From positions 1 to 58,231 of the forward strand of contig CAZSHZ010000093.1 of NCBI GenBank assembly GCA_964606955.1: DNA of 58,231 nt. The letters are read 5' to 3'. Source of the DNA: an uncultured Nitrospirota bacterium (GTDB taxonomy: Bacteria > Nitrospirota > Nitrospiria > SBBL01 > CAZSHZ01). Positions within the stretch are counted from its first letter, which is position 1; every line of letters begins with the position of its first letter. The notes beneath the pieces were generated by a model. The model was not told the origin of the DNA. It saw only the letters and a program-made list of their open reading frames with translations, and searched no databases. The translations under genes were made by a program, and so were the position numbers. Below, piece after piece: positions 1,759 to 56,401 of the stretch.

Positions 1759-2646
1759 ATGCGCGAGTGGGCTGTCCTCCTCTTCGCCGGCTTCCTCCTC
1801 TTTCTGTTGGTGATCGGATTCGCCTTGCGGATGAGAACCGGCTTCTCCCAGCCGGGGCAGCAGGAGATCGCGGCCCCTCGCCCGGCGGCGGCTGATCCCA
1901 ACCGCTATGCGCATCTGAAGACCATCGTCGGAAAAGACGGCGTCCCGATGGCGATGATCCCGGCCGGAAAGTTTCTGATGGGGACCAAGGAAGAGGTCGG
2001 CGAATTCGACGAGCGCCCGCCGAGGGAGGTCACTCTCAAAGGATACGCCATCGACCTCTACGAGGTGAGCCGCGAATCGTATCTGAAATTCGTCGAGGCG
2101 ACGCGCCACCGCGACCCCGAGGTGATGGTCTTTTTCGATAATCCGAAAAAACTTGAGGCCTCTCCCCGGCAGCCGGTGGTCGGCGTGTCGTGGGATGACG
2201 CCAACGCATACTGCAGATGGGCCGGGAAGAGGCTCCCGACCGAGGCCCAGTGGGAGCGGGCCGCCCGAGGGGAGGATGGCCGCCGTTACCCCTGGGGCGA
2301 AGAGTTTCTAGAGGGGCACACCAACGTCCGGGGAGGGGAGGATGGATTCCTCTATACCGCCCCGGTCGGGTCGTTCGAGGCGGGCCGAAGCCCGTACGGT
2401 CTGTATGACACCGCGGGGAACGCGGCCGAGTGGGTCTTCGATTGGTACGACGAGTTTTACTACCGGGAGGGGCAGGTCACCCTTCCGAAAGGCCCGGAGA
2501 AGGGGATGGCCCGGGTCGTCCGGGGAGGCTCCTGGAACGATCCGAAGGGGGATGCGCGGACGACGAAACGGATGGCGATTGCGCCCTCCCGCTCCGAGGC
2601 GATCATCGGGTTCCGCTGCGCGGTTGATCTCCCGGAGGAGAACTGA
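1759..2646 (+). CDS. FGE-sulfatase (SUMF1/EgtB/PvdO) family protein, membrane-anchored, lacking the FGE catalytic cysteine pair
   Basis: N-terminal hydrophobic anchor. Family signatures: VSWDDANAYCRWAGKRLPTEAQWERAARG, GNAAEWVFDWY, VVRGGSW and GFRCA. No Cys occurs in the region after RGGSW. Confidence 0.8.
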   Translation: MREWAVLLFAGFLLFLLVIGFALRMRTGFSQPGQQEIAAPRPAAADPNRYAHLKTIVGKDGVPMAMIPAGKFLMGTKEEVGEFDERPPREVTLKGYAIDLYEVSRESYLKFVEATRHRDPEVMVFFDNPKKLEASPRQPVVGVSWDDANAYCRWAGKRLPTEAQWERAARGEDGRRYPWGEEFLEGHTNVRGGEDGFLYTAPVGSFEAGRSPYGLYDTAGNAAEWVFDWYDEFYYREGQVTLPKGPEKGMARVVRGGSWNDPKGDARTTKRMAIAPSRSEAIIGFRCAVDLPEEN

Positions 2647-27979: not shown

Positions 27980-28110
27980 AAGGACAGAAGTAGCATAGCA
28001 TACCGGGTTCCCACCCACAAGAAGAAGGGAGGCGAAAAAATTATTGACAGAGAACAAAAATGCCCGTAATATCAGCAATCACGATTTAATCGATCGGAGT
28101 TATATACATC

Positions 28111-28540: not shown

Positions 28541-30259
28541 ATGGAGCGAAAATACCTCGACACGGACATCCTGATCATCGGAGGGGGAACGGCCGGCTGC
28601 ATGGCCGCCGTTGAGACGAAGGAGCGCTATCCGCAGCTGAAGGTCGCGATCCTGGAGAAGGCGCATATCGACCGCTCCGGTTGCCTGGCCGGGGGGATGA
28701 ACGCGATCAACGCCTATCTGAATCCGGGCGAGACGCCGGAGTCGTTTGCCCGTTACGTCCGGTTCGACTCCTGCGGGTTGATCCGGGAGGACCTGGTCAC
28801 CTCGATGTCCGAGCTTTTTGAATACGCGGTAAAAAAGGTCGAGAAGTGGGGGCTTCCGATCCTCACCGACAAGAACGGGAACTATGTCCCGCGCGGCCGG
28901 TGGAATATCAAGATCAACGGAGAATCGCTCAAGCCGATCCTGGCAAAGGCCGCCCGGGAAGCAGGGGCCGTCGTCCACAACTGGATCGTCGTGACCAATC
29001 TTTTGACAACGGAGTCCGATCCGCGAAGGGTCATCGGAGCGACCGGTTTCTCGATCCGGACCGGGGTCTTTTTCATCGTCCGCGCCAAGGCGACGATCAT
29101 CGCCACCGGCGGCGCCGCCGGGATCTATCGATCCCTCAACGTCTTCGACGCGCAGCATAAGACTTGGTATTGCCCCTACAACACCGGAGCGGGATACGCG
29201 ATGGGGATACGGGCCGGCGCGGAGATGACCTCCTTCGAGATGCGGTACGTCGCCTTGAGAACCAAAGATGTCATCGCCCCGACCGGAACAATCGCGCTTG
29301 GGGTGAATGCCCCACAGATCAATGCAAAGGGGGAAAAGTTCATGCAGACCCGCTACGCCCATCTCGGCGGGGATGCCGCACCCACCCCCTATCGCGCCTA
29401 CGCCCCGATTCAGGAGATCAAGAGCGGGAGAGGACCGGTCTACCTCGACACCCGTGGCATCACCCCCGAGCAGGTCCATAACTTAAAGGGGGCATTTCTC
29501 GACATGTACCCCTCGCAAGTCCTCTACTGGGTCTCCAACGATATCGATCCCTCAAAAGAGCCGGTCGAGGTGCAGACGACCGAACCCTATATCGTCGGTG
29601 GGCATTGCCAGGCAGGCTATTGGGTGGATGGGGAGCGGCGCACAACCCTCCCCGGCCTCTATGCGGCGGGGGATGTGGCCGGCGGCGCGCCGTTCAAGTT
29701 CATCTCCGGCTGCTGGGCGGAGGGGGTCATCGCGGCTCGGGCAGCCGGCCGAGACGTCATCGCTCTGCCGTGGGAGGTGATCGACCCGGGTCAGGTAGAG
29801 ACCGAGGAGAAACGGGTCTTCGCGCCTCTACGCGCCCACGGCAAAATCAGAGGCGGCGTGATCCCCTATGAGATGGAGGTCCGCCTTCAAAAGATCATGG
29901 AGGAGTACGCAGGCGGCGCCTCCAGCTACTATGAGATGAACGAGGAGAGGCTTCTCATCGCCCGGCGCGAACTGGCAAGGCTCCCCGCCCAGACCCCGCA
30001 TCTGATGAGCGATGATCTGCATTCTCTCATGAAGGCGCACGAGATCATCGACCGGATCGACGTCGCGCGCGTGCTGGTGGAGCATCTGATCTATCGAAAA
30101 GAGACCCGCTGGCCCTCGTATCAGACCCGCGTCGATTATCCCCAGCGGGATGATGAGAACTGGTTAAAATTCGTTAATTCCGTCGCAAAAAACGGCGAGA
30201 TCGTGATGATGACGCGCCCCTATGAACAGATGATTGCCGGGGACCGCTACAAACCTTAA
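28541..30259 (+). CDS. aprA: adenylylsulfate (APS) reductase alpha-subunit-like flavoprotein
   Basis: FAD motif DILIIGGGTAGC. ...RSGCLAGGMNAINAYL...YVRFDSCGLIREDLV resembles archaeal/bacterial AprA as I recall it. Followed by an AprB-like ferredoxin and sat. At 572 aa it is shorter than typical AprA. Confidence 0.7.
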   Translation: MERKYLDTDILIIGGGTAGCMAAVETKERYPQLKVAILEKAHIDRSGCLAGGMNAINAYLNPGETPESFARYVRFDSCGLIREDLVTSMSELFEYAVKKVEKWGLPILTDKNGNYVPRGRWNIKINGESLKPILAKAAREAGAVVHNWIVVTNLLTTESDPRRVIGATGFSIRTGVFFIVRAKATIIATGGAAGIYRSLNVFDAQHKTWYCPYNTGAGYAMGIRAGAEMTSFEMRYVALRTKDVIAPTGTIALGVNAPQINAKGEKFMQTRYAHLGGDAAPTPYRAYAPIQEIKSGRGPVYLDTRGITPEQVHNLKGAFLDMYPSQVLYWVSNDIDPSKEPVEVQTTEPYIVGGHCQAGYWVDGERRTTLPGLYAAGDVAGGAPFKFISGCWAEGVIAARAAGRDVIALPWEVIDPGQVETEEKRVFAPLRAHGKIRGGVIPYEMEVRLQKIMEEYAGGASSYYEMNEERLLIARRELARLPAQTPHLMSDDLHSLMKAHEIIDRIDVARVLVEHLIYRKETRWPSYQTRVDYPQRDDENWLKFVNSVAKNGEIVMMTRPYEQMIAGDRYKP

Positions 30260-30270
30260 GAGGAGGACAG

Positions 30271-30651
30271 ATGCCGGTCTGGGTCGATCCTGAGAAGTGC
30301 AACGGCTGCTACGGCGCGGCCCAACCCCCTTGCCTGCGGATGTGCCCCGGAGATCTGATCGTCAAGGACATGAAGGCCGACAAGGCCTATCTGAAATATC
30401 CGGAGGACTGCTGGGACTGCCTCCCCTGCGTGAAGGCCTGCCCGGAGGAGGCGATTGAGTTTGTCCTCTCCTACCAGATCGGCTTTAGAAACGCCCGGCT
30501 GATTCCGCATGTCGCGAAGGGCCGCGACAAGATTACCTGGGAGTGCCACGACAGCCGCGGGAATATCGAGGAGTTTGTGATTCCGACGAAGATCCTCCCG
30601 ATGGCGCTCGACGAGAAGGTCGAGGGGGCCCCGATCGATTTCTCAATATGA
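30271..30651 (+). CDS. aprB: APS reductase beta-subunit-like 2x[4Fe-4S] ferredoxin
   Basis: Cys spacing C-x2-C-x7-C-x3-CP (CNGCYGAAQPPCLRMCP) and C-x2-C-x2-C-x3-CP (CWDCLPCVKACP) matches the AprB pattern. MPVWVDPEKCNGC start. Confidence 0.7.
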   Translation: MPVWVDPEKCNGCYGAAQPPCLRMCPGDLIVKDMKADKAYLKYPEDCWDCLPCVKACPEEAIEFVLSYQIGFRNARLIPHVAKGRDKITWECHDSRGNIEEFVIPTKILPMALDEKVEGAPIDFSI

Positions 30652-31820
30652 TGGCTTCGATCCCGCACGGAGGAAGGCTGGTCACCCTTTTGGCGGAGCA
30701 GCGGGATCGGGCCGATCTGGCCCGCAAGGCCTCGGGCCTGCCGAGGCTGGTGCTGACGGCCCGCCAGATGTCGGACCTGGAGCTTCTCGTCCACGGGGCG
30801 CTCTCCCCGCTGGAGGGTTTCATGGGGAGCGCCGAGTTCGAATCGGTCCTCTCCGGGATGCGACTCCCCTCCGGGCTGATCTGGTCGATTCCGATTACCC
30901 TGGCGACAAGCCGCGAGACGGCCTCCCAACTCCGCGAAGGGGGGGAGGTCGCCCTTGCCGATCCCTCCGGGAGGCCTGTGGCCCTTCTCGCGTTGGCCGA
31001 AAAATTCCCTCACAAAAAAGAGCCGGAGGCCTTGAGCGTCTACGGGACCGCGGATCCGAAACACCCCGGGGTCGCGTATGTCCTATCGATGCCCCAGATC
31101 CTTTTGGGTGGGAAAGTGATCGCTTTCTCCGATCTCCTTGGGACCGACTTCTCTGAATTCAGGCTGACGCCAAGTGAGACGCGCGGGCTTTTTGAGGAAC
31201 GGGGATGGAAGCGGATCGTCGCCTTCCAGACCCGGAACCCGATTCACCGGGCCCACGAATATATCCAGAAGTGCGCGCTTGAGATCGCCGACGGACTCCT
31301 GGTTCACCCGATCGTCGGGGAGACAAAGGGAGACGACATCTCCGCCGAGGTTCGGATGCGCTGTTACCGCGTCCTCCTCGACAACTATTATCCCAAGGAG
31401 CGCACGTTACTCGCCGTCTTTCCGGCCTCCATGCGGTATGCCGGCCCCCGGGAGGCGATCTTTCACGCCATGATCCGGAAGAACTACGGCTGCACCCACT
31501 TCATCGTCGGCCGCGACCACGCCGGAGTCGGAAACTACTACGGTCCCTTCGACGCCCAGAAGATCTTTCACCGCTTCACCGAACAAGAGCTCGGAATCAC
31601 GCCGCTCTTCTTCGACAACACCTTTTACTGCCGCCGTTGCCTCGGGATGGTATCGGCAAAGACCTGTCCCCACGACGCCACCGAGCATATCGCCCTGTCC
31701 GGGACAAAGGTTCGGGAGATGTTGATCGCGGGGATCGCCCCGCCGCCCGAATTCACCCGTCCCGAGGTCGCCGCGATATTAATTGAGGCGATGCGTGACG
31801 GGACAGGGCCGAAGCCGTGA
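30648..31820 (+). CDS. sat: sulfate adenylyltransferase (ATP sulfurylase)
   Basis: QTRNPIHRAHE and GRDHAGVGNYYGP motifs. Start at the ATGATG overlapping the aprB stop (30648/30651); the track extension upstream lies inside aprB. Confidence 0.9.
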   Translation: MMASIPHGGRLVTLLAEQRDRADLARKASGLPRLVLTARQMSDLELLVHGALSPLEGFMGSAEFESVLSGMRLPSGLIWSIPITLATSRETASQLREGGEVALADPSGRPVALLALAEKFPHKKEPEALSVYGTADPKHPGVAYVLSMPQILLGGKVIAFSDLLGTDFSEFRLTPSETRGLFEERGWKRIVAFQTRNPIHRAHEYIQKCALEIADGLLVHPIVGETKGDDISAEVRMRCYRVLLDNYYPKERTLLAVFPASMRYAGPREAIFHAMIRKNYGCTHFIVGRDHAGVGNYYGPFDAQKIFHRFTEQELGITPLFFDNTFYCRRCLGMVSAKTCPHDATEHIALSGTKVREMLIAGIAPPPEFTRPEVAAILIEAMRDGTGPKP

Positions 31821-39525: not shown

Positions 39526-40446
39526 ATGCGGCCGACCTTCCGAAACTCTTGTTGTCCTGCGGTTTTTCTCTTATTTCTCATCTCGGCGCCGGCCGAAGCA
39601 AAGGTCAAGGTGGTGGCGACCCTCCCCGTGCTGAAGGATTTCGTCGAGGCGGTCGGGAAAGAGCGCGTGGAGGTGAGAAGCCTGATCAGCGGCCTGGAGA
39701 GCGAGCACACCTATACGCCACGCCCTTCCGATCTTGCCACGGTGGCCGAAGCGCGGATGCTGGTCAAAATCGGCCTCGGTCTTGAGATCTGGGTGGATGG
39801 GCTCGTGAAAAACGCGGGGAACTCAACGCTCCTGGTGATCACGACGTCGGACGGGGTTCCGCTGCTGCGGGATCAGGCGGGGGAAGAACATCGAGAGCGA
39901 AGGAGGTTCAAGGAGCGGCATTCGATGGGGAATCCGCACATCTGGCTGGACCCGGAGAATGCGAAGATCATGATCCGCCACATCACCGCGGGGCTGATTA
40001 AGGTCGATCCGGAGAATCGAGCGGCCTACCTGAAAAACCAGTCGGACTTCTTCGAGCAGATCGACTCACTTGAGCGGACGCTCAAAAGGCGGGTGAGCCT
40101 CCTTCCGGACCGGAGGATCATCACGCATCATCCGGCCTGGCCCTACTTCGCCCGCCGCTTCGGGTTCGTGATCGTAGGGAACATCCAGGCACAGGTCGGG
40201 AGCGAGCCCTCGGCGCGCCGCCTCTCTCAACTGATCGACCGGATCCGGCGGGAGAAGATCCGCGTGGTCGTTTCGGAGCCGCAACTCTCCCCTCGCATCC
40301 CCGACACGCTCCGGCGCGAGACCGGGGTAAAGGTCGTGCTCCTCTCTCCGCTTCCCGGCGCGATCCCGGGGACCGAGAGTTATCTGAAACTAATCTCCTA
40401 CTCTGTCGGCGTTCTGGCCAACGCCCTGGAAAAGGACCGGACATGA
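39526..40446 (+). CDS. metal ABC transporter substrate-binding protein (ZnuA/TroA/MntC cluster 9 family)
   Basis: Signal peptide, VVATLPVLKDFV, EHTYTPRPSD, GNPHIWLDP and the HPAWPYFARRFG motifs of the family. Confidence 0.85.
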   Translation: MRPTFRNSCCPAVFLLFLISAPAEAKVKVVATLPVLKDFVEAVGKERVEVRSLISGLESEHTYTPRPSDLATVAEARMLVKIGLGLEIWVDGLVKNAGNSTLLVITTSDGVPLLRDQAGEEHRERRRFKERHSMGNPHIWLDPENAKIMIRHITAGLIKVDPENRAAYLKNQSDFFEQIDSLERTLKRRVSLLPDRRIITHHPAWPYFARRFGFVIVGNIQAQVGSEPSARRLSQLIDRIRREKIRVVVSEPQLSPRIPDTLRRETGVKVVLLSPLPGAIPGTESYLKLISYSVGVLANALEKDRT

Positions 40447-41222
40447 GGCCGGCGATCATCTGCGAAGGGGTCACGGTCGCCCTCGGCCGGCGCGTGATTC
40501 TTGAAAATCTTACGATGGAGGTCGCGCAGGGGGAATTCGCCGGCATCATCGGCCCGAACGGCGCGGGAAAAACGACGCTCCTGCGGGCGATCCTCGGCCT
40601 GGTCCCGCTCTCCGGCCGTCTGACAATCTTCGACTGCAATCACAAGGATCTCCGCTGCTCTCACCGCGCGCAGATGGGATATGTCCCGCAGAAGGAGCGG
40701 GTTGATCCGAATTTCCCGATCACGGTCTGGGAGGTAGCGGCGATGGGGAGATTCTCCTCGATCGGCCTTCTCCGCCGACCTGCTCTCCTTGACCGGAAGA
40801 TCGTTTCGGAGGCGCTGGAGGCGGTCGGGATGCTCGAGCGGGAGACGGCCCCCTTCGGAAGCCTCTCCGGCGGTCAGCAGCAGCGCGTCCTGAGTGCGCG
40901 GGCCCTGGCGCAGCAGCCCCGCGTCCTTTTACTGGACGAGCCGACCACCGGGGTCGACGCACCGACGCAGCACAGCATCCTCGAGTTGATCCGGCGGCTC
41001 CATCGGGAGAGAGGGCTGCTGGTCCTCTTCGTCACGCACGATATCAATCTGATCTCCCCCTTCGCCGACTCCCTGATCCTGCTGAACCGCCGCCTCTACG
41101 CCAAGGGACCCCGGGAGGGGGTTTTAAGAAAAGAGATCCTCCAGGAGGTCTACGGAAAGGAGGTGATCGTCACGTCCGACGCCGGGCGGTTCGTGATCAT
41201 CTCCGATCACCACCGCGGATAA
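40443..41222 (+). CDS. metal ABC transporter ATP-binding protein
   Basis: Walker A GPNGAGKTT, signature LSGGQQQR and Walker B LLLDEPT. 4-nt overlap with the binding-protein gene. Confidence 0.9.
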   Translation: MRPAIICEGVTVALGRRVILENLTMEVAQGEFAGIIGPNGAGKTTLLRAILGLVPLSGRLTIFDCNHKDLRCSHRAQMGYVPQKERVDPNFPITVWEVAAMGRFSSIGLLRRPALLDRKIVSEALEAVGMLERETAPFGSLSGGQQQRVLSARALAQQPRVLLLDEPTTGVDAPTQHSILELIRRLHRERGLLVLFVTHDINLISPFADSLILLNRRLYAKGPREGVLRKEILQEVYGKEVIVTSDAGRFVIISDHHRG

Positions 41223-41223
41223 G

Positions 41224-42057
41224 ATGTTCGATCTCCTTGCATACGGTTTTATGCAGCGCGCCCTTGCCGCCTCGATCGTCGTGGGACTTGTCTGCTCCAT
41301 CATCGGGGTCTTCGTCACGTTGCGGGGGCTCTCCTTCATCGGCGCCGGAACAGCCCACGCCGCCTTCGCGGGGGTCACGCTCGCTTATCTCGTCGGTCTC
41401 CCCCCCTTCCCCCTGGCCGTCTCGTTCAGCCTAGCCACCGCCTGGATCACCGGATTTTTGGAGCGGGCCGGAAAGATGAAGCTCGACGTTTCGGTCGGAA
41501 TCTTTTACACGACCACGATGGCGATGGCGGTCCTCTTTCTCGGAATGATGCAGGAGTACAATCCGGAGGTCTACGGATATCTCTTCGGGAGCATTCTCTC
41601 GGTCACCCAGGAGGATCTGATTGTGATCGTGATTCTCTCCATCGTCATCCTCGCCCTCCTCTGGGCATTCTTTAAAGAGTTTCACTTCATCACGTTCGAC
41701 CCGGAGATGGCGGAAGCGAGCGGCATTCCCGGCCGCCGGCTCTTTTTCCTTCTGCTGACTCTCATCTCGTTGACAATCGTCCTGGCGTTGAAGGCGGTCG
41801 GCGCGATCCTGGTCTTTGCCCTGATCGTCATCCCCCCAGCGGCCGCCCATCAGTTTGCCTTCAGTATGCGGGGGATGCTCCTCAGATCGGCCCTCTTCGG
41901 GGTCGGGTCGGCCGTCGCGGGGGTCTTCCTCTCCTATCTTTTTGACCTCCCCTCGGGGGCCACGATTGTCCTGATCGCCGCGGCCCTCTTTTTTCTCTCC
42001 GTCTTTGTCTCGCCCAAACGCCAAACATGGGGGCGGGTCGAAGGGCACGGCGGATAA
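41224..42057 (+). CDS. metal ABC transporter permease (ZnuB/TroC/MntB family)
   Basis: About eight TM segments. The FMQRALAASIVVGLVC start is typical of ABC-3 permeases. Confidence 0.9.
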   Translation: MFDLLAYGFMQRALAASIVVGLVCSIIGVFVTLRGLSFIGAGTAHAAFAGVTLAYLVGLPPFPLAVSFSLATAWITGFLERAGKMKLDVSVGIFYTTTMAMAVLFLGMMQEYNPEVYGYLFGSILSVTQEDLIVIVILSIVILALLWAFFKEFHFITFDPEMAEASGIPGRRLFFLLLTLISLTIVLALKAVGAILVFALIVIPPAAAHQFAFSMRGMLLRSALFGVGSAVAGVFLSYLFDLPSGATIVLIAAALFFLSVFVSPKRQTWGRVEGHGG

Positions 42058-42067
42058 AATTTTGGAC

Positions 42068-42096
42068 TTGACAGCCCGAAAAAGAAGGGATATAAG
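42068..42096 (+). promoter_or_regulatory. candidate sigma70-type promoter TTGACA-N17-TATAAG upstream of the giant multicopper oxidase gene
   Basis: TTGACA at 42068-42073, a 17-nt spacer, and TATAAG at 42091-42096. About 105 nt upstream of the ATG at 42202. Confidence 0.45.
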
Positions 42097-42201
42097 GAAA
42101 ATTCTCATGGTTTGGGAATCCTGTTCTTCAGTCCCGTTTCACCCGCAATTCTCTGACCGAGTTAAGTCAACGAACAGATTAAAATTGAAAAGGGGGGAAT
42201 A

Positions 42202-45200
42202 ATGCAGATCGCAGCAGCTTATAATTTTCGGAAGGGTTTGCTTATCTTCGCGCTGGTCCTGGCGGTCCCGGCGTGGGCCTTAGGCGCGGATAACGCAGAC
42301 CAAAACATCAACGACATGCACGCCATGCACGGCGGAACCGGCACCGAGGTCTCGCGAGAGAACGCGGGCCCCGCCCTCATGGGGGCCCTGACCAACCGCC
42401 TCGACTCCGAAATCGCGCGCGCAGGCGGCCAGATGGGCGGTTTTACCTCAAGCGGACAGGCGCACGCGATGTCGCAGGGGGTCCCACTTCGGATCTCGAC
42501 TACCGAGGAGTCTGTGACGTCGGGCGGCCGGTGCCCGGACGGGGTCCCCATCAAGAACTTCGATATCTCTGCGATCAACGTCCAGATTACCCTCAACCGC
42601 TTCATGCAGTTTTTCCCCGGCTACCTCTACGCCCTGACCGAGGATCTCCCGAAGGTCCGCGAGGAGGAGAAGAAGAACGCCGAGGCCCGGAAGAGCGCCG
42701 ATGAGTTCCGCGACGCCGGGGTCTCCACCGGACTTCAGGGCGATTTGATCCAGCCGCTGGTCATCCGCGCCGGCGCGGGCGACTGCGTCCGGATCATCCT
42801 CCGCAATCAGACGACGAACGAGGAGCCGGTCAGCATCCATATCCACGGTTCAAGCCTGATCATCCGCGCCACCGGCCAAGCGGCGACGATGATAAACAAG
42901 GACTCTCTCGTCATGCCTGGAAAGAGCCAGGAGTTTGAGTGGTACATCCCCGGAGACCAGCCGGACAACGCGCACCACTTCCACAGCCATGCGGTCCGCG
43001 AGCAGTGGAACCTCGGGATGTTCGGAGCGTTGGTGGTTGAGCCGCGCGGCTCGCGCTATCTCTCCCCCTGGAGCGGAAAAGAGATGAAGAGCGGGTGGAT
43101 GGCGATGATCGAGGACCCGAACGGTCCGGACTTCCGCGAGTTCGCGATCTTCTATATGGAGATCGGGGATGAGGTCGTCCGGATTCTCGACCGCAAGGGC
43201 GAACTCCTTCCGCAGCGGGACCCCATGACCGACACGTATCGGCCCGCCGCGCGCGGCCTCAATTTAAGGAGCGAGAACCATGGGACCCGCCTTACGCTCC
43301 AGAAGGAGAAGCACGGGATCCATGACGAGTCGATGGCCTACGGATCGTACACCTTCGGAGATCCGGCCACGACTGTTCCCCGCTCCTATCTCGGCGATCC
43401 GGTCAAGTTCCGGATGATGGGGGGGGCCGAGATCATCCATTCCCATCATCTTCACGGCGGAAGCGACCGCTGGCCGCGCTCCCCCGAGGCGGTCACGAAG
43501 GCGGAGTTTGACTTTGCCGCCACATCCAGCGGGACCGGACCGGTGAAGTTCCCGCCGATTCGGACCTCCTCCGAGCGGCTGGATGTCCAGGCGATCGGCG
43601 CCGCGGAATCATTTAACGAGGTGATCGAGTGCGGTTCCGGCGGCTGCGCCTACGGCGCCGGAGACTACACCTTCCACTGCCATATTCCTCAGCACTACGT
43701 GACCGGAATGTGGGGCTTCTGGCGGGTCTACACCACCCTTCAGGCGGCGGGCTCGCAGGACGACATCATGCCGGCGCTGGCGGAGCTCCCCGATCGGAAG
43801 GGTAAGATGAAGGAGGCGGTCGATTCCTCCAAACTGGTCGGCACCACAGTGGACTGGTTTGCCGGAAAGAAGTTCAAGATTACGGCGGACAAGACCGACT
43901 GGAGTGCAAATCCCCAGATGGTTTCGATCAAGGATTGGGTGGAGATGCAGCTTCCGGCCCAGGGACTTCCGGGCGGCCAGGAGGACGAGCATAAGCAGAT
44001 CGTCTCTTACGACGCTAGCGTCTATAACTGGAAGTGGGAGAGGAATGTCGCGTTGAACGAGCCCGAGACCAAGCAGGTCTGGGCCAATTATAAATCGCCT
44101 GCCCCGGGGAAACGGCTCCCGATCCGATGGGATTCGGCCACTGGCAAGCCCTCGATTCCGTGGGAGCGACCACACCTGGGTAAGCGCCCCCCATTCTCGC
44201 CCGACCACAATCCGGCCCCGTTCTTTGAGCCGATCCGGCTCAATAAGGATGGGAAACGGACGACCGAGCCGGCCCAGCCCGGGGAAAACGGCCCTTGGAG
44301 CCTCTGCCCCTCGAACGCGCCGCGCAAATACTACACGATCAACGCGATCGGACTTCCGATCACGTTGAAAACGGCGACCGCCAAAACGCCGGCGATCGTC
44401 GATCCGGACGCCCAGATCTTCGTCCTGGAGGAGGAAGAGGCGGCGGTCCGGGTGACACCCGCCAAGCAGGTGCCGCTGGCGATCCGCGCGAACGTCTACG
44501 ACTGCGTGGACGTCGTCTTCAAGAGTAAACTTCCGGACGACAAGCGGGTGGCCAATTCCAGCAAGGTCAACATGCACCCGCACTTCTTCCAGTTCGACAT
44601 CACCGCCACCGACGGGGTGATCATCGGATTCAACTATGAGCAGTCGGTCCGGCCGTTCAACCTGTTGAAGTCGGAAGACCGGGAAGAGACACACCACGGA
44701 ATGCCGATGCCGCAGAATACAACGCTGACAAAGGCGGCCAAGGCAGGGGATCTCTCGATTACGGTCGCCTCGACAGTCCGGCATATCGACGTGAACGAGG
44801 ACAAGTTCGACACCCCGATGTTCCACCCGGGAACTGTGATCGGAATCGGCCTGGACGGAGTCGGAGAATTCGAGGCGAGAAGGATCAAGGAGATCAATGG
44901 GAACAAGGTGATCTTCACCGAACCGCTGATCAACGACCACGCGGCCGGACGGATCGTCAGCGTTGAGTACGTCCGCTACCGCTGGTATCCGGACGTCGAT
45001 CTCGGGATCGTCTTCTGGCATGACCATGTCTTCGGGCTCGACTCCTGGGGACACGGGCTGTTCGGCTCGACGATCGTCGAGCCGCCTCGCTCCACCTATC
45101 ACGATCCAACGACCGGCAAGGAGGTCCGAAGCGGTCTGGTCGTCGATATCCACACCACCGATCCGGTCTCGGCAAAAGTGACAGGGAGTTTCCGGGAGAT

Positions 45201-46986
45201 CGTCATGCGGATCATGGACTCGAATCCGCGGACTGCCGAATTGATTTCGGCCGACAACCCGATGGCTGGGAGGCCATCGGTCGACGGAACCCCATCTGCA
45301 AAGTATCCCGATAAGATCAACAAATCGCCGATGAGCTTTCTCAATGGTGGGGAGGCGACCACCGGGAGCGGACTTGATATGCGGGTGGAGCCGCTCTCGG
45401 TCCGGCTGGCCAACAACCCCGATCCCGCACTCCTCTTCTCCAGCAAGATCCATGGGGATCCGGAGACGGCGCTGGTCCGGGCCTATCTGGGCGACCCGAT
45501 CGTCTTTAGGGTCCTTCAGCCTGCAGCCAACGAGGCGCACACCTGGCATGTGAGCGGCCACTGGTTCCCGGAGGATCGGTACAACGACGACGCCCTTCCG
45601 CGCAACACACTTCGGATCGCGATCGCCGAGCGGATGGACGTGGTGCTCCCGGCGGCGGGAGGACCGCAGCGGATGGCGGGAGACTATCTCTACTACTCCG
45701 GCCGGGCCTCCCACTTCGCGGAGGGGTCATGGGGGCTCATTCGCGTACTGGATAAAATGGACAAGGGCCTGCAGCCTCTGCCGAGCCGTGAAGAGATCCC
45801 GACCTCGGTGAAGGAGCTCTGCCCGGGCGACGCGCCTGTGAAGAACTTCGCGGTCTCGGCCGTCGACCACACCCTGAAGTTCAACCCCGGAATCCCGGAG
45901 GTGATGGAGGTCGATCTTGGACGGAATCTGAAGCTCGGCAACAAGGAGGGGAAGGTTTATCTCCTCGACGATGAGGTCACCCGGGTCAAGAGCGGGATGC
46001 TCTCACCGCACCCGCTGACCCTTCGGGTGAATGTCGGCGACTGCATCAAGATCAAATTGACCAACCGGATGGCGAAGGAGCGGGCCGGTCTACATGCGGA
46101 CGGGCTTGCCTTTGACCCGAAGGATTCGATGGGGATCAACGTCGGAAACAACGGCGGCGACCAGACCGTCGCTCCGGGCCAGAGCCGCCTCTACACGTTC
46201 TATGCGCATCCGGAGCTGGGCGAGAACGCGGCGCTGATCCAGGACTGGGGGAACGTGATCGACAATCCGCGGAACGGCCTGTTCGGGGCGATCATCATCG
46301 GTCCGAGAGGGTCGAAGTATCGCGATCCGGCCGGCGGAGCGGATATTTCGATGCGGAACTCCTGGCAGGCGGATGTGATCGTGGACCGGTCGGTCCCGGG
46401 GAACGAGACCCGGGAGAACTATCGGGACTTCGCCCTGATCTTCCAGGACGAGGACAACCTGATCGGCACCAGCTTTATGCCGTACGCCCAGAAGGTGGCG
46501 GGTTTGACCGGGATCAACTATCGCGCCGAGCCGAAAGACTACTACCTCGACGAGAAGGGGTGCGCGGTCGGTCTGGTCTTCCAGTGCATCTCCGAGAGCA
46601 GCAAGGGGGCCATCAACACGCCGGTTCTGGAAGCGCACGCCGGGGACAAGGTCCTCATCCATGTCTTCGGCGGGTTCATGGAGCAGGTGGGGGTCTTCGC
46701 GCTCGATGGTCACGAATGGCCGGTGGATAATTTTCGAGGGGCGCACCTCCACAGCTCTCTGGAGTTCGGCGGCAGTTCCTATGTCCGTGTCGATCTTCGG
46801 GGCGGCGCCGGCGGACCGCATCAGCTCCCCGGTGACTACATCTATATGAACCATCGGGCGGCCTACATCGACGCCGGTCAGTGGGGGATCTTAAGAGTCC
46901 TCCCGAAGGGGGAGAAGAGAATCCTGGCGCTCAATCCGACCGAGTCGAAAGTCCGGCCGGTCTCTCTTTCGGCGAACGGCCGCTAG
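42202..46986 (+). CDS. giant (1594 aa) secreted multicopper oxidase, internally triplicated
   Basis: Sec-type signal (ALVLAVPAWALG). Complete copper-ligand set in the first ~510 aa: HIHG (42838-42849), HHFHSH (42973-42990), HSHHLHGG (43438-43461) and HCHIPQHYVTGM (43675-43710). Degenerate second and third units follow (WHDH at 45016-45027, HTWHVSGH, and others). Confidence 0.88.
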   Translation: MQIAAAYNFRKGLLIFALVLAVPAWALGADNADQNINDMHAMHGGTGTEVSRENAGPALMGALTNRLDSEIARAGGQMGGFTSSGQAHAMSQGVPLRISTTEESVTSGGRCPDGVPIKNFDISAINVQITLNRFMQFFPGYLYALTEDLPKVREEEKKNAEARKSADEFRDAGVSTGLQGDLIQPLVIRAGAGDCVRIILRNQTTNEEPVSIHIHGSSLIIRATGQAATMINKDSLVMPGKSQEFEWYIPGDQPDNAHHFHSHAVREQWNLGMFGALVVEPRGSRYLSPWSGKEMKSGWMAMIEDPNGPDFREFAIFYMEIGDEVVRILDRKGELLPQRDPMTDTYRPAARGLNLRSENHGTRLTLQKEKHGIHDESMAYGSYTFGDPATTVPRSYLGDPVKFRMMGGAEIIHSHHLHGGSDRWPRSPEAVTKAEFDFAATSSGTGPVKFPPIRTSSERLDVQAIGAAESFNEVIECGSGGCAYGAGDYTFHCHIPQHYVTGMWGFWRVYTTLQAAGSQDDIMPALAELPDRKGKMKEAVDSSKLVGTTVDWFAGKKFKITADKTDWSANPQMVSIKDWVEMQLPAQGLPGGQEDEHKQIVSYDASVYNWKWERNVALNEPETKQVWANYKSPAPGKRLPIRWDSATGKPSIPWERPHLGKRPPFSPDHNPAPFFEPIRLNKDGKRTTEPAQPGENGPWSLCPSNAPRKYYTINAIGLPITLKTATAKTPAIVDPDAQIFVLEEEEAAVRVTPAKQVPLAIRANVYDCVDVVFKSKLPDDKRVANSSKVNMHPHFFQFDITATDGVIIGFNYEQSVRPFNLLKSEDREETHHGMPMPQNTTLTKAAKAGDLSITVASTVRHIDVNEDKFDTPMFHPGTVIGIGLDGVGEFEARRIKEINGNKVIFTEPLINDHAAGRIVSVEYVRYRWYPDVDLGIVFWHDHVFGLDSWGHGLFGSTIVEPPRSTYHDPTTGKEVRSGLVVDIHTTDPVSAKVTGSFREIVMRIMDSNPRTAELISADNPMAGRPSVDGTPSAKYPDKINKSPMSFLNGGEATTGSGLDMRVEPLSVRLANNPDPALLFSSKIHGDPETALVRAYLGDPIVFRVLQPAANEAHTWHVSGHWFPEDRYNDDALPRNTLRIAIAERMDVVLPAAGGPQRMAGDYLYYSGRASHFAEGSWGLIRVLDKMDKGLQPLPSREEIPTSVKELCPGDAPVKNFAVSAVDHTLKFNPGIPEVMEVDLGRNLKLGNKEGKVYLLDDEVTRVKSGMLSPHPLTLRVNVGDCIKIKLTNRMAKERAGLHADGLAFDPKDSMGINVGNNGGDQTVAPGQSRLYTFYAHPELGENAALIQDWGNVIDNPRNGLFGAIIIGPRGSKYRDPAGGADISMRNSWQADVIVDRSVPGNETRENYRDFALIFQDEDNLIGTSFMPYAQKVAGLTGINYRAEPKDYYLDEKGCAVGLVFQCISESSKGAINTPVLEAHAGDKVLIHVFGGFMEQVGVFALDGHEWPVDNFRGAHLHSSLEFGGSSYVRVDLRGGAGGPHQLPGDYIYMNHRAAYIDAGQWGILRVLPKGEKRILALNPTESKVRPVSLSANGR

Positions 46987-47006
46987 GCCGGTTCCGAGAT
47001 AGATCA

Positions 47007-47041
47007 GGGGCGCGAGGTTGAGGCCTCGCGCCCCTTTTTTA
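47007..47041 (+). terminator. intrinsic terminator after the multicopper oxidase gene
   Basis: GGGGCGCGAGG-ttgagg-CCTCGCGCCCC (11-bp stem) followed by TTTTTTA. Confidence 0.7.
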
Positions 47042-47497
47042 TTCCCCGGTCAGGCGCCGATAGAGTCGATGAAACTCTTCGGTATCGAGGGGCGGGTCCG
47101 ACAGCCTCTGAAGATCTTCCGGGCGGATTGGCACCTGCACAATTTCATCAAAGATCGAGGTCCCGATCGCAATGTAGCCGGGCCGGATCCTCTTCTGCGG
47201 GATCAAGAACTTCACGCCCCGGTTGTGGGTCGTCGCAAGACGGATCGCCAGCCGGGCCACATCGGCGGGAATCTCTCTCCCGATTGCGATATTCGCCGGA
47301 GGATTGCCGGCTGCGAAGAATTGATGCCGGATCCGGGTCACCGAGAGGGCCGCGAACTCTTTTTTGATCTGGTCCAGATCTCCCCTCCGCTCCGCCGCAA
47401 GAGAAATCTCTACGAGGACGGGTCCCGCCAGGGCAGGCGACGGCGCGGGTAGAAGCAGGAGCGTAAGAAAAAGCGCTTCAAATATTTTAATGGACAG
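47039..47497 (-). CDS. small secreted hypothetical protein, probable non-canonical (CTG or ATT) start
   Basis: The track ORF (47039-47341) is open further upstream in the same frame and encodes a signal-peptide-like SIKIFEALFLTLLLLPAPSPALA-GP. This is preceded by AGGAG. No ATG, GTG or TTG is available; CTG lies at 47497 and ATT at 47491. Confidence 0.4.
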   Translation of the reverse strand: MSIKIFEALFLTLLLLPAPSPALAGPVLVEISLAAERRGDLDQIKKEFAALSVTRIRHQFFAAGNPPANIAIGREIPADVARLAIRLATTHNRGVKFLIPQKRIRPGYIAIGTSIFDEIVQVPIRPEDLQRLSDPPLDTEEFHRLYRRLTGE

Positions 47498-47524: not shown

Positions 47525-48586
47525 ATGATAAGGACAATGGTGCAGAGAAAACCTCTCCTCGCCCTCCTCCTTCTGATCGCGCTCCCCGTTTCCCAGATTC
47601 CAGGTGCCGACCCGGTAAAATGGACCTACTCAACGGGAAATACCATCTTCTCGGCCGTCGCCCTCGGCGGAGAGGGGAGAATCTATGTCGCCTCCTTCGA
47701 CGGGTATCTCTACGCCTTGACATCGGCCGGAACCCTGAGGTGGCGATACAGAGTCGGCCGCTTCGCCAATTCGACCCCGGCGCTCGACAGGGACGAGACT
47801 CTCTACGTCGGTTCGGAGGACCATTTCCTCTACGCCCTGACGACCGGGGGCGACCTGAAATGGCGCTATACCGCCGGCGCAGGGATCTTCTCATCCCCGG
47901 CGATCGGCAGCGGGGGGGCGATCTACTTCGGATCCGAGGACGGCTATCTCTATGCGCTGGACCCGCGCGGAACGCTCCTCTGGCGGCGCAAGATCGGCAC
48001 TCCCGTCAGTTCGGACCCGGCCGTCGGGAGAGACCAAACGGTCTATCTCGGCTCGGAGGACGGCCGGCTCTACGCCTTCGCCTCCGACGGAGAGTTGAGA
48101 TGGCACGCACTCCTCGATTCGGGCCTCTCCTCCCCCACGGTCGGACCGGACGGCGCCATCTACGTCGGATCAACAGGGGGATACCTTTACAGCATCGCCC
48201 CCGACGGGAAGACGCGCTGGCGCTATCGGACTGAAAAATTCGTCTCCGCCGCCCCGGCGATCGGAGTAGACGGAACCATCTACGCCGGATCTTACGAGGG
48301 GGATCTATACGCGCTCACGCCCGATGGGGCGCTGAAGTGGCGCTCCCCGGTGCAAAGCTCGCTCCATTCCACCTCCGGGATCGGACCGGACGGCAAGATC
48401 TTCATCGGATCGGTGGACGGTTTCCTCTATGCTCTGACCCCCAACGGGGAGCCCGTCTGGCAGTTCCGGCCGGGCCACGCCGTCTCCTCCATCCCGACGC
48501 TTGCAAAGGACGGGACGGTCTATGTTGGATCCCACGACGGCTTTCTCTTCGCCCTCGTGGTCAAGAAAAGGCAGTTTCTTTCCTAA
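47525..48586 (+). CDS. PQQ-like/BamB-like beta-propeller repeat protein (secreted)
   Basis: Signal peptide, then about eight units of the form G(T/A)(L/I)(Y/F)(V/F)GSxDGxLYAL(T/D)xxGxL(K/R)W(R/Q). Confidence 0.8.
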   Translation: MIRTMVQRKPLLALLLLIALPVSQIPGADPVKWTYSTGNTIFSAVALGGEGRIYVASFDGYLYALTSAGTLRWRYRVGRFANSTPALDRDETLYVGSEDHFLYALTTGGDLKWRYTAGAGIFSSPAIGSGGAIYFGSEDGYLYALDPRGTLLWRRKIGTPVSSDPAVGRDQTVYLGSEDGRLYAFASDGELRWHALLDSGLSSPTVGPDGAIYVGSTGGYLYSIAPDGKTRWRYRTEKFVSAAPAIGVDGTIYAGSYEGDLYALTPDGALKWRSPVQSSLHSTSGIGPDGKIFIGSVDGFLYALTPNGEPVWQFRPGHAVSSIPTLAKDGTVYVGSHDGFLFALVVKKRQFLS

Positions 48587-54585: not shown

Positions 54586-55634
54586 TGTCCTTCCTCACAG
54601 TTAAAAATCTCGTCAAGCACTTCCCGGTCGGGCGAGGCTGGTTCTCGCGGACCACGGAGGTTGTGCATGCGGTGGACGGCGTTACCCTCTCGATGCGCGA
54701 GGGGGAGACGCTCGGGCTGGTCGGAGAGTCGGGCTGCGGCAAGAGCACTCTGGCCCGCCTGATCCTCCGCTTAATTGAGCCGACGTCGGGGGAGATCTTC
54801 TTCGACGGAGAAGATCTCCTCCGGATGGACAAAGAGGCGCTTCGCCGAACGCGCAGAAAGATCCAGATGATCTTCCAGGACCCTTACGCCTCGCTCAATC
54901 CGCGCATGCGGGTCCGAGACATTGTCGGCGAGCCGCTGATCATTCACGGAGCCGGCAACGGCCGGACGCGCCCTCTCTCGAAAGCGGAGCGCGAGGATCG
55001 GGTGGCACAGATCCTGGATCGGGTCGGGCTCTCCCGCGAGGCGATGGAGCGATATCCCCACGCCTTCTCCGGGGGGCAGCGCCAGCGGATCGGCATCGCG
55101 CGCGCCCTGATTTTAAATCCCAAACTGATCGTCGCCGACGAGCCGGTCTCGGCTTTGGACGTCTCCATCCAGGCGCAGGTGATCCGGCTCCTGTTCGACC
55201 TCAAGCGCGAGTTCTCCCTCTCCTATCTCTTCATCGCGCATGATCTGGCCCTAGTCGAGCAGGTCTCCGATCGCGTTGCGGTGATGTATCTGGGAAAGAT
55301 CGTGGAGACGGCCTCCGCCGAGGATCTCTACCAGGCGCCCCTCCATCCCTACACGGAGGCGCTCCTCTCGGCGGTCCCGATCCCCGACCCGACGGTCAAG
55401 CGCAAACGGCTCCTCCTCCCCGGAGACGTCCCCTCGCCCATCTCGCCCCCCTCGGGCTGCCGCTTCCATCCCCGCTGTCCCCTTTACGCCAAATATCGGG
55501 AGCCGATCTGCGTCAATGAAGAACCTCCCCTTACGGAGATCCTGCCGGCTCACTTCGCCTCCTGCCATCTGCGCCAGGCCGGGTACGATATGCCGACGCG
55601 ATCGCCGATCGCTGAAGGGGATTCCGCAAAGTGA
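54585..55634 (+). CDS. ABC transporter ATP-binding protein, DppF/OppF-like with a C-terminal oligopeptide domain
   Basis: [28 protein letters not shown], and a C-terminal [11 protein letters not shown] motif. Confidence 0.85.
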
Positions 55635-56401
55635 GCCGGACCCGAATGGAGAGGGTTCTCCCGCCGATCCCGGAGGAACTCTCAACGCAGCGCCTAAAAA
55701 ATTATCACGGCGAGGAGTGGCACACGCCTCGCGGCCGGCGGATCCGCGAGGTCGTCTTCGGAATCAACGACGGCGTGATCACCACAATCGGATTCCTCGC
55801 CGGGGTCACCGGCTCCGCCATTCCGCACTCGGTCGTCACGCTGGCCGGGATCGTCATGGTGGCGGCCGGAGCCGTCTCCATGGCGATCGGGGCGTTCGTC
55901 TCCAGTAAGGCGCAGATGGAGTTTTTCGAGCAGGAGATCGCCCGCGAGCGGGAGGAGATCGAGACGGCCCCGGAGAAGGAACGCCAGGAGGTGCACGAGA
56001 TCGTCTCGGAGATGGGTTTTCTTCCCGACGAGGCCGGAATGATCTCCCGCCGGATCACCTCGGACAAGAATCTCTGGCTGTCGTTTATGATGAAGGAGGA
56101 GCTGGGGATCGGCGCTCTGCAGTTCGACAATCCGCTCCATCTCGGGCTCCTCATCGGTTTCTCTTTTCTGCTCGGCGGGGTCCCCCCTCTGTTTCCCTAT
56201 ATCATCCTCGATCGGCCGCTGACGGCCCTCGGCGCCGCGGTGCTGACATCTCTGCTGATCCTTTTTGCGACCGGCGCGATCAAAACCGTCGTGGCGAAAG
56301 GACATTGGTGGAAAAGCGGTCTTTCGATGATGGGGTTCGGAACGGCCGCGGCGGGGATCGGTTTCGCCGCCGGCCTGCTGATCCGAAGTTTCATCGGTTG
56401 A
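55631..56401 (+). CDS. VIT1/CCC1-family iron/manganese transporter
   Basis: [23 protein letters not shown], an acidic cytosolic helix ([19 protein letters not shown]) and C-terminal TM segments. GTG start overlaps the previous stop. Confidence 0.8.

Follow-up and report, generated by a model that had tools for sequence, protein, structure and literature searches.

Where does a giant secreted multicopper oxidase (MCO) built as a threefold repeat hold its copper, and what does it oxidize? Both questions are raised by the 1594-amino acid (aa) protein encoded by an ATG-started open reading frame (ORF) at 42202..46986 (+) in the window, i.e., the whole stretch of 58,231 nucleotides from an uncultured Nitrospirota bacterium that is analyzed here. 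An earlier note on this DNA described the protein as a secreted MCO of three ~530-aa units, of which only the first retains the full copper site, and proposed that this arrangement differs from that of the Mn(II) oxidase MnxG. Judged by sequence alignment, the protein is a Sec-exported MnxG-type six-domain MCO, a member of an architecture class that is already known, and its copper sites, read from the same alignments, are arranged as in MnxG and not in a new way; the idea of a new arrangement is corrected accordingly. What is new here, our data suggest, is an evolutionarily coupled cluster of His residues at the interface of domains 6 and 1, a candidate second metal site. Growth by Mn(II) oxidation has been shown for Manganitrophaceae alone, Nitrospira dominate manganese-removing sand filters, and both carry this oxidase family. 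A correct ligand map, with the type 1 (T1) copper in domain 2 and the O2-reducing cluster in domains 2 and 3, keeps experimenters from mutating the wrong histidines.

The copper ligands were traced through a close set of 117 full-length relatives (≥51% identity) and a distant set of 71 further representatives (32 to 51% identity), the latter obtained from an exhaustive search of 1.84 billion cluster representatives that gave 1733 hits at E ≤ 0.001; ligand counts for the distant set are given out of 72. In domain 2, i.e., the second domain of unit 1, H413, H415, H416, H418, H492, C493, H494, and M503 are invariant in all 117 close relatives, and H498 is kept in 116. Domain 3, the first domain of unit 2, is equally invariant at H792, H794, H940, H942, and H951 (117/117). 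Among the distant relatives, the His and Cys ligands of domain 2 are kept in 71 to 72 of 72 proteins, H792/H794/H940/H942 in 71, and H951 in 42; the axial M503 is Met in 61 and otherwise Phe, Ile, or Ala. The His residues of domain 1, in contrast, are variable. In the close set, H213 is kept in 90 proteins, H215 in 96, H258 in 57, H259 in 27, H261 in 112, and H263 in 83, and in the distant set H215 is found in 24/72 and H263 in 25/72. Tabulated per lineage, whole Nitrospira clades read IN..HH or HH..HY in domain 1 while domains 2 and 3 are intact. Because the ligands of domains 2 and 3 are invariant and the motifs of domain 1 are not, MHPHFF and WHDHVFG of unit 2, which the earlier note had taken for degenerate remnants, are catalytic ligands.

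The number of clusters follows from the ligands of domain 2, which carries one HxxHxH/HCH set and can therefore build only one cluster, together with its conserved partner, domain 3. The partner ligands lie ~300 to 450 residues downstream. In the homotrimers formed by two-domain (SLAC-type) oxidases, the trinuclear cluster forms between neighboring subunits; by the same logic, the cluster is placed between units 1 and 2 of the fused chain. Thus, the eight trinuclear-cluster His residues are split by alignment between domains 2 and 3, and the cluster is predicted to be held at the interface of these domains. The T1 site is single and located in domain 2. As the earlier note had recognized, the HCH with the T1 Cys (C493) is present only in unit 1, and the corresponding positions of domains 4 and 6 read YSG and MNH.

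The same ligands are found in MnxG of Bacillus sp. PL-12 (9bxa). In HMMER alignments, MnxG H281/H284/H286, H334-C335-H336, H340, and M345 align with H413/H416/H418, H492-C493-H494, H498, and M503, respectively, and the HIH (H529/H531) and HDH (H575/H577) motifs of MnxG stand opposite H792/H794 and H940/H942. MnxG residue numbers were counted by hand in these alignments, and its ligands were taken from the alignment, the H340A label, and Vasin 2013 (PMC3600357); the register is validated because 9bxa is the H340A mutant and its Ala340 falls opposite H498. Bacillus MnxG lacks the domain-1 HxH pairs and reads MHFQE and FFTDLG at these positions. In all bacterial six-domain oxidases analyzed by Vasin 2013 (PMC3600357), a mononuclear site was found solely in domain 2, and domains 2 and 3 together make up the trinuclear site. 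The residue-for-residue agreement with MnxG, with which that analysis concurs, contradicts the proposal that the arrangement here is a different one.

An interpretation in line with that proposal is that T1 and trinuclear sites are both complete within domains 1 and 2 of unit 1, as in a three-domain laccase, and that units 2 and 3 are copper-free, degenerate scaffolds, unlike in MnxG. It would explain why the four canonical motif types occur in order within aa 213 to 503. However, domain 2 has a single ligand set whose conserved partners are those in domain 3 (117/117 close and 71/72 distant relatives), and the domain-1 His residues are lost in whole clades that keep the T1 site and domains 2 and 3. 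Moreover, Bacillus MnxG, a proven oxidase, has the domain-3 motifs and not the domain-1 HxH motifs, the domain-1 His residues co-vary with domain 6 and not with domain 2, as detailed below, and the published analysis places the cluster between domains 2 and 3 (Vasin 2013, PMC3600357). We regard a site confined to unit 1 as highly improbable; the invariant ligands combine domain 2 of unit 1 with domain 3 of unit 2.

Structure models agree with this assignment to the MnxG class. AlphaFold2 (AF2) models were made in two overlapping parts, aa 105 to 1200 (predicted local distance difference test score (pLDDT) 73.7; predicted template modeling score (pTM) 0.74) and aa 696 to 1594 (pLDDT 84.3; pTM 0.85). 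The models are beta-rich, and for both the best structural match is 9bxa_A, with E = 8e-45 (template modeling (TM) score 0.55) and E = 2.6e-64 (TM score 0.65), followed by ceruloplasmin (E ~1e-16 and ~1e-30), coagulation factors V/VIII, and two- and three-domain laccases; the matches to 9bxa_A and ceruloplasmin span ~940 to 1140 aligned columns. Because both models match 9bxa_A best, units 2 and 3 each represent a genuine pair of cupredoxin domains; the possibility that they are unrelated to cupredoxins, which the earlier note had left open, did not materialize. By sequence, phmmer against the PDB likewise returned 9bxa_A (E = 1e-94), with two-domain laccases far behind at ~1e-5. The kinship with MnxG and ceruloplasmin to which the note had pointed is therefore borne out, MnxG being the best match by sequence and structure and ceruloplasmin the next among structures. 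Between the HSHHLH and HCH motifs, the model contains a low-confidence stretch (43423-43674, aa 408 to 491), the flanking ligands of which are invariant; this stretch, which contains C477 and C482, may be a flexible or a partner- or metal-dependent loop.

The threefold repeat itself is statistically solid, far beyond chance. With the units bounded at aa 105 to 525 (U1), 696 to 1190 (U2), and 1191 to 1594 (U3), BLASTP self-comparison gave E = 5e-20 for U1 versus U2, 7e-20 for U1 versus U3, and 2e-16 for U2 versus U3, at 24 to 27% identity. Pfam mapping, which like the self-comparison had been suggested in the note, matched Cu-oxidase_3 (1.4e-15, aa 180 to 282) and Cu-oxidase_2 (2e-9). Internal repeats and AF2 models resolve six cupredoxin domains in three tandem two-domain units, and all six domain segments are recovered in 78 to 79 of 79 distant representatives. 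Each of the 15 motifs quoted in the note is present once, i.e., HIHG (starting at aa 213), HHFHSH (258), GMFGALVV (272), HSHHLHGG (413), and HCHIPQHYVTGM (492) in unit 1; MHPHFF (791), WHDHVFG (939), GLFGSTIV (952), HTWHVSGH (1113), and YLYYSG... (1162) in unit 2; and LHADGLAF (1297), NGLFGAIIIG (1358), IHVFGG (1486), GHEW (1503), and YIYMNH... (1546) in unit 3. Thus, the repeat stands, but the units are not equal blocks of ~530 aa: beyond the six repeat domains, the protein has an N-terminal tail of ~80 aa, a 172-aa inter-unit domain, and a ~100-aa insert in domain 3.

Read from the N-terminus, the protein starts with a Sec-type signal peptide (42202..42285 (+), aa 1 to 28), the cleavage site of which, placed by eye, lies between ...VPAWALG and AD. 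It contains no twin-arginine motif, and an RR-like N-terminal motif occurs in only 6 of the 117 close relatives; Tat export is therefore unsupported, in agreement with the note. The N-terminal tail (42286..42525 (+), aa 29 to 108) contains His and Met residues (NINDMHAMHGG...), is probably disordered, and is detectable in 1 of 79 distant representatives. The inspected N-termini of close relatives have richer His/Met strings, e.g., EEDHSHHMMDMS and MDHSGHDMGQMMQDMSM. Such tails are reminiscent of Cu(I)-binding Met/His segments and could have a role in copper binding.

Domain 1 (42526..43071 (+), aa ~109 to 290) has the HxH motifs H213/H215 and H261/H263, which lie outside the catalytic cluster and are proposed to face domain 6. 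Domain 2 (43072..43776 (+), aa ~291 to 525) would hold the sole T1 site (H413/C493/H498/M503) and half of the trinuclear cluster (H416/H418/H492/H494). It is followed by the folded domain between units 1 and 2 (43777..44292 (+), aa 526 to 697), which is not a cupredoxin repeat: it had no match in the BLASTP comparison of internal repeats. Its AF2 pLDDT is mostly 75 to 92, and it is seen in 48/79 distant representatives but not in short ones of the Bacillota type. Domain 3 (44293..45096 (+), aa ~698 to 965) contributes the other half of the cluster (H792/H794/H940/H942) in addition to the conserved H951 and is interrupted by a beta-rich insert of ~100 aa (44659..44967 (+), aa 820 to 922), modeled by AF2 as strands with a pLDDT of mostly 75 to 95, lower at its start, and found in 23/79 distant representatives. 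Both folded extras are missing from the alignments with Bacillus MnxG, in which the MnxG numbering jumps from 556 to 557-558 across the insert. In domain 4 (45097..45771 (+), aa ~966 to 1190), the T1 Cys is replaced (Y1165-S1166-G1167), and H1113, H1116, H1120, and H1171 are kept. In domain 5 (45772..46326 (+), aa ~1191 to 1375), the first HxH reads H1298-A-D1300, and the second is lost (Q1347/W1349). In domain 6 (46327..46911 (+), aa ~1376 to 1570), HCH is replaced by M1549-N1550-H1551. Within the oxidase gene there are also antisense ORFs, i.e., one of 701 aa (43609..45714 (-)) and several shorter ones, which are Arg/Pro/Gly-rich; we set them aside as artifacts because their composition is typical of GC-rich DNA.

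These features define how the oxidase relates to other systems. It shares with MnxG the six cupredoxin domains, the single T1 site in domain 2, and the ligands of domains 2 and 3, but the two proteins are only ~20 to 22% identical in structure-based comparison and differ in length (1594 versus 1227 aa). The inter-unit domain, the domain-3 insert, and the His/Met tail are additions of the window protein, which also keeps the four domain-1 His residues and H1551 in domain 6 that MnxG lacks; and while MnxG is a spore-surface protein, the window protein is Sec-exported in a Gram-negative. Thus, the oxidase is not a close ortholog of a characterized enzyme, although its copper-site architecture is a known one. 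The set of Vasin 2013 (PMC3600357), including P. putida MnxG PputGB1_2447, Leptothrix MCOs, a Nitrosomonas europaea MCO, and others, resembles the window protein, by published description, in its size range of 1.2 to 2.7 kaa, in having T1 confined to domain 2 and the cluster placed between domains 2 and 3, and in keeping residual ligands at other interfaces; our distant representatives have the identical invariant domain-2/3 pattern. Ceruloplasmin and hephaestin, the eukaryotic ferroxidases, share the six-cupredoxin pseudo-threefold ring. However, in ceruloplasmin domains 2, 4, and 6 each carry a T1 site and the cluster lies where domains 1 and 6 meet, whereas in the window protein domains 4 and 6 have no T1 Cys, domain 6 has neither the HxH of the HxxHxH motif nor the first His of HCH, the full cluster is assigned to domains 2 and 3, and the 6/1 interface retains just part of a His set. 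Nor does the protein conform to three-domain laccases or CueO, in which one unit of ~500 aa contains every copper ligand and its first and last domains enclose the cluster, for unit 1 consists of two cupredoxin domains, and the His residues of domain 1 are dispensable in the family. Finally, each unit resembles one subunit of the two-domain oxidases (SLAC-type; Nitrosomonas blue copper oxidase, 3g5w; mgLAC, 2zwn), except that three subunits are fused and two of three active sites are lost or reduced.

If the domain-1 His residues are not part of the catalytic cluster, why are they kept in so many relatives? Their distribution follows a single residue in domain 6. In the close set, the four-His state (H213/H215/H261/H263) and His1551 are both present in 65 proteins and both absent in 50, and only 2 are discordant; over all 188 sequences, the corresponding numbers are 77, 99, and 12. 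To control for ancestry, we computed a neighbor-joining tree from the 188 sequences and used Fitch parsimony to place changes on its 374 branches. Changes of the four-His state fall on 17 branches and those of H1551 on 15; nine branches carry both, against an expectation of 0.7 (hypergeometric p = 3e-10). Of these nine shared events, four affect multi-tip clades (16, 48, 25, and 14 tips) and five affect single tips. In an unbiased scan of ~1490 positions, H1551 ranks first outside domain 1, and the reverse scan from H1551 returns H263, H215, Q268, and H213. The identical scan of candidate positions in domains 4 and 5, which serves as the negative control, gave nothing significant (best pair, H1116/D1300, p = 1.5e-3); a relic site at the domain 4/5 interface, for which raw counts had looked correlated, was rejected because the signal disappeared under phylogenetic control.

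The position of H1551 is informative. In domain 6, where HCH is represented by M-N-H, it stands in place of the second His, and the domain-1 HxH motifs are expected to face domain 6 because the ring topology is as in ceruloplasmin, in which the cluster lies between domains 1 and 6. In CueO, one type 3 (T3) copper is bound by H103 (second His of motif 1), H141 (first His of motif 2), and H501 (second His of HCH), and we take H215, H261, and H1551 to be their equivalents. Altogether, these observations suggest that H213/H215/H261/H263 and H1551 make up a further metal site, an optional one, where domains 6 and 1 meet, with its occupancy by metal being a prediction. This site could derive from an ancestral second trinuclear site, with H215/H261/H1551 as a complete three-His position, similar to a T3 site or the type 2 (T2) site of nitrite reductase, flanked by H213, H263, and M1549 and without an adjacent T1 wire. 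It might accommodate one more Cu or, alternatively, bind Mn(II)/Mn(III) to deliver substrate or to nucleate oxide, and would have been lost as a unit several times, e.g., in Nitrospira clades.

The competing interpretation is that these His residues are a metal-free relic of the ancestral second trinuclear site and that the coupling reflects clade structure or alignment error. Most partner ligands of domain 6 are indeed gone (G1490/F1492 at the HxH, M1549 for the first His, and N1550 for the Cys), residual ligands at the 1/6 and 4/5 interfaces have been noted earlier in six-domain oxidases (Vasin 2013, PMC3600357), and the five single-tip events among the nine shared ones may be sequence or alignment errors. 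Unselected relics, on the other hand, should decay independently, yet the changes coincide on nine branches, including the multi-tip clades; H1551 stands first among all positions outside domain 1, and the analogous positions in domains 4 and 5 carry no such signal. In addition, H215, H261, and H1551 fill the three positions that bind one T3 copper in the CueO structure. We give the relic real weight, although short of considering it probable. Because coupled loss is a mark of residues that work together, we hold an optional extra metal site to be likelier than a silent relic. That a functional second site has been kept specifically in Manganitrophaceae-type proteins, both Manganitrophus paralogs, and some Planctomycetota is a tentative proposal on the doubtful side. 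Because the His cluster is separable and clade-specific, it sets Manganitrophaceae-type apart from Nitrospira-type proteins (IN..HH / KNQ), which lack it, and provides the contrast with which a second site can be tested.

Our preferred reading, which we consider likely, is that of an MnxG-type six-domain oxidase that arose from a triplicated two-domain unit and has one catalytic center, in which domain 2 bears T1 and shares the trinuclear cluster with domain 3. In this scheme, the reducing substrate would give single electrons to the sole blue T1 copper in domain 2 (H413, C493, H498, M503). The electrons would then pass via the H492-C493-H494 triad, a path proposed by analogy with CueO, CotA, and MnxG, to the trinuclear cluster (H416/H418/H492/H494 and H792/H794/H940/H942), which would reduce O2 to water in a four-electron reaction. 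Domains 4 to 6 would close the pseudo-threefold ring without a redox-competent T1 site.

The family to which the oxidase belongs bears on its substrate. A word-indexed search returned 1866 homologs at E ≤ 1e-10, and at least 576 loci were counted when each species was represented by a single genome. The closest relatives are from Manganitrophaceae, Nitrospiria, and Ca. Manganitrophus sp. GAC4 (71 to 86% identity, mostly 76 to 82%). Many Nitrospira relatives, including those in rapid-sand-filter and comammox metagenome-assembled genomes (MAGs), follow at ~62%, and a few from Methylomirabilis, Pirellulaceae, and Deltaproteobacteria at ~52 to 54%; a paralog in Ca. Manganitrophus SA1 is 52% identical to the window protein. 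Clusters of the distant representatives, from Planctomycetota, Chloroflexota, and Bacillota, are named "multicopper oxidase domain-containing protein" and, in one case, "DUF3347 domain-containing protein". The family has already been noticed in the literature and is biochemically uncharacterized. Yu et al. 2022 (mBio) report "two novel MCOs" in the core genome of all Ca. Manganitrophaceae and place the strain Mn1 member Ga0306812_1011759 in the 95th expression percentile under Mn-oxidizing conditions (Table S6); "mnxG" is reported in all Nitrospira MAGs of a second study, a 2024 preprint on rapid sand filters (bioRxiv 10.1101/2024.12.25.630300). Both sources only note gene presence, and the former also Mn1 expression, with no domain or ligand analysis found in the parts consulted. 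The window protein belongs to this family of Nitrospirota "mnxG" and "novel MCO" genes and shares with it a small secreted neighbor described below.

Over seven Mn-grown transcriptomes in Yu 2022 Table S6, Ga0306812_1011759 has values of 35 to 2200, parallel to those of the sigma-54 regulator Ga0306812_1011761 (39 to 920), which suggests that the Mn1 oxidase paralog and the sigma-54 activator belong to one inducible regulon. This regulator sits two locus tags away, in the same order as in the locus of the SA1 paralog (L005, 5695-12914).

A metal ion is the most probable substrate. Among such ions, Mn(II) is the leading candidate, favored because of the relationship to MnxG, the core-genome status in Manganitrophaceae, and the expression of the paralog, at a confidence that stays somewhat below even; Cu(I) or Fe(II) would come next. 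Oxidation of these latter ions is a serious rival because relatives have copper-related neighbors and His/Met tails and because the family is abundant in Nitrospira. In this rival interpretation, the architecture is the same, but the enzyme is a periplasmic cuprous or ferrous oxidase similar to CueO, PcoA, or Fet3, and MnO2 formation is absent or incidental. Genes for CopD-like proteins, SMBP, and Cus/Czc-type RND systems recur beside family members, the tails of close relatives recall Cu(I)-binding segments, and family members are widespread in Nitrospira, organisms not known for Mn oxidation; furthermore, an oxidase that passes electrons to O2 offers no energy conservation from Mn, as argued in Yu 2022. 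However, the sole characterized homolog seen with such an architecture is the Mn(II) oxidase MnxG, no copper-resistance gene adjoins the oxidase in the window, and the only known Mn lithotrophs have orthologs in their core genomes and express a paralog strongly when their growth depends on Mn (Yu 2022). Balancing these points, we consider a copper or iron role possible, though less likely than not.

A Mn(II):cytochrome c oxidoreductase that feeds the respiratory chain in Mn lithotrophy, and does not itself reduce O2, was raised in Yu 2022 as the sole way in which such oxidases could serve lithotrophy, and the high expression of the paralog under Mn-oxidizing conditions (Table S6) would fit it. 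Yet, the invariance of all eight cluster His residues speaks for retained O2 reduction; the oxidase has no cytochrome c gene next to it in the window, and the family is equally conserved in organisms other than Mn lithotrophs. We consider this route very improbable.

Some observations weigh against an MnxG-type enzyme that acts on Mn(II). The NCBIfam MnxG equivalog model NF041487 scores 109.8 bits versus a cutoff of 3100, and the oxidase is therefore a distant MnxG homolog and not an ortholog. In the model of aa 105 to 1200, AF2 confidence falls below 50 over aa 408 to 491 of domain 2. No MnxE/MnxF-like partner was found, in a search in which a homolog of the small neighbor was compared only with PDB chains and other small ORFs were not searched exhaustively. 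The contact of domains 1 and 6 is predicted only from ceruloplasmin-type ring topology and from co-variation. Recurrent neighbors in relatives are copper related, i.e., CopD-like proteins, SMBP (small metal-binding protein), and Cus/Czc-type RND efflux systems, and the family is common in nitrite-oxidizing Nitrospira, which are not known to oxidize Mn. Because the gene order in Mn1 matches that of the L005 locus, the oxidase of which is 52% identical to ours, the expression evidence concerns a paralog. Lastly, homology does not predict substrate in such oxidases, according to bioRxiv 10.1101/2024.12.25.630300.

In the window, the oxidase gene looks monocistronic, judged by its flanking signals. 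Upstream, a putative promoter and ribosome-binding site (RBS) (42076..42201 (+)) were recognized by eye, with TTGACA-17 nt-TATAAG at ~42076-42104 and GGGGGGA before the ATG; the sigma-70 scan did not list this promoter because its -10 hexamer lacks T at position 6. Sigma-54 control, suggested by the activator that lies upstream in 34 of 83 related loci, was rejected for the window gene, with no -24/-12 match in the upstream intergenic region and no activator homolog in the window. Downstream, a hairpin (47006..47035) with a near-perfect 13-bp stem, 10 GC pairs, and a T-tail lies between two convergent genes and is likely a strong terminator, possibly a bidirectional one.

The convergent gene (47039..47494 (-)) encodes a small secreted hypothetical protein of ~151 aa with a signal-like N-terminus. 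Its conserved frame runs upstream of the first ATG/GTG/TTG (47039-47341 in the ORF list), and it therefore probably starts at CTG or ATT after an AGGAG RBS. The protein is 59% identical to a counterpart at one related locus (L001, 3756-4310) and 47% to that at another (L003, 12929-13420). Homologs adjoin the oxidase in 36 to 37 of 83 related loci; it is the sole recurrent neighbor that is present in the window and a possible partner of the oxidase. Pfam gave one nonsignificant hit (E = 0.18) and NCBIfam none for this protein, and its L001 homolog had no PDB match at E ≤ 10; the accessory chains of 9bxa were presumably in the searched set, in which no MnxE/F-like relationship thus appeared.

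Next comes a gene for a BamB/PQQ-like beta-propeller protein with a signal peptide (47525..48586 (+); Pfam PQQ_2 and Beta-prop). This arrangement is conserved in just 3 of the 83 loci, i.e., L009, L010 (Ca. Manganitrophus GAC4), and L072, which are the three closest loci with enough flank; its association with the oxidase is weak. Directly upstream of the oxidase and on the same strand lies a complete ZnuA/ABC ATPase/ABC-3 permease metal importer (39526-42057 (+)), a position that sets the window locus apart from the 83 other family loci. Which metal it imports is ambiguous, with MntC at 170 bits and AztC at 165 bits, neither of which reaches its cutoff. We rejected a ZnuABC-oxidase metal-uptake module, since importer genes are near the oxidase in 0 of the 83 related loci.

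Neighbors that recur in relatives are CarboxypepD_reg/fn3_3 proteins (50/83 loci), sigma-54 activators (34/83), SMBP (30/83), and CopD-like proteins (9/83); the window contains no CarboxypepD_reg, SMBP, or CopD-like partner and no tandem oxidase paralog. A second paralogous giant oxidase is present in three of the five loci for which gene tables were read (L001, L003, and L004). There, oxidases of ~1600 aa are paired a few kb apart (1-703 and 8001-12818 in L001; 605-5323 and 8001-12746 in L003/L004), with genes for CarboxypepD_reg/fn3_3, SMBP, and hypothetical proteins between them; the window has one copy only.

Farther from the oxidase, the window encodes a VIT1-family (Fe/Mn) transporter (55631-56401 (+)) and a CNNM/CorC-type divalent-cation transporter (26528-28078 (-)), neither of which is linked to the oxidase in relatives. 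A gene for a formylglycine-generating-enzyme-like protein (FGE-sulfatase; 1759-2646 (+)) lies ~40 kb from the oxidase; two Nitrospira loci (L003/L004, 14204-15082 (-)) likewise have an FGE-sulfatase gene, ~1.5 kb downstream of their oxidase gene, which may be coincidence. Finally, genes for an aprA-like flavoprotein and then ATP sulfurylase (sat) are at 28541-31820 (+). The pair matches the assimilatory sat/aprAB route, a core trait of Manganitrophaceae according to Yu et al. 2022, and fits the taxonomic placement of the window.

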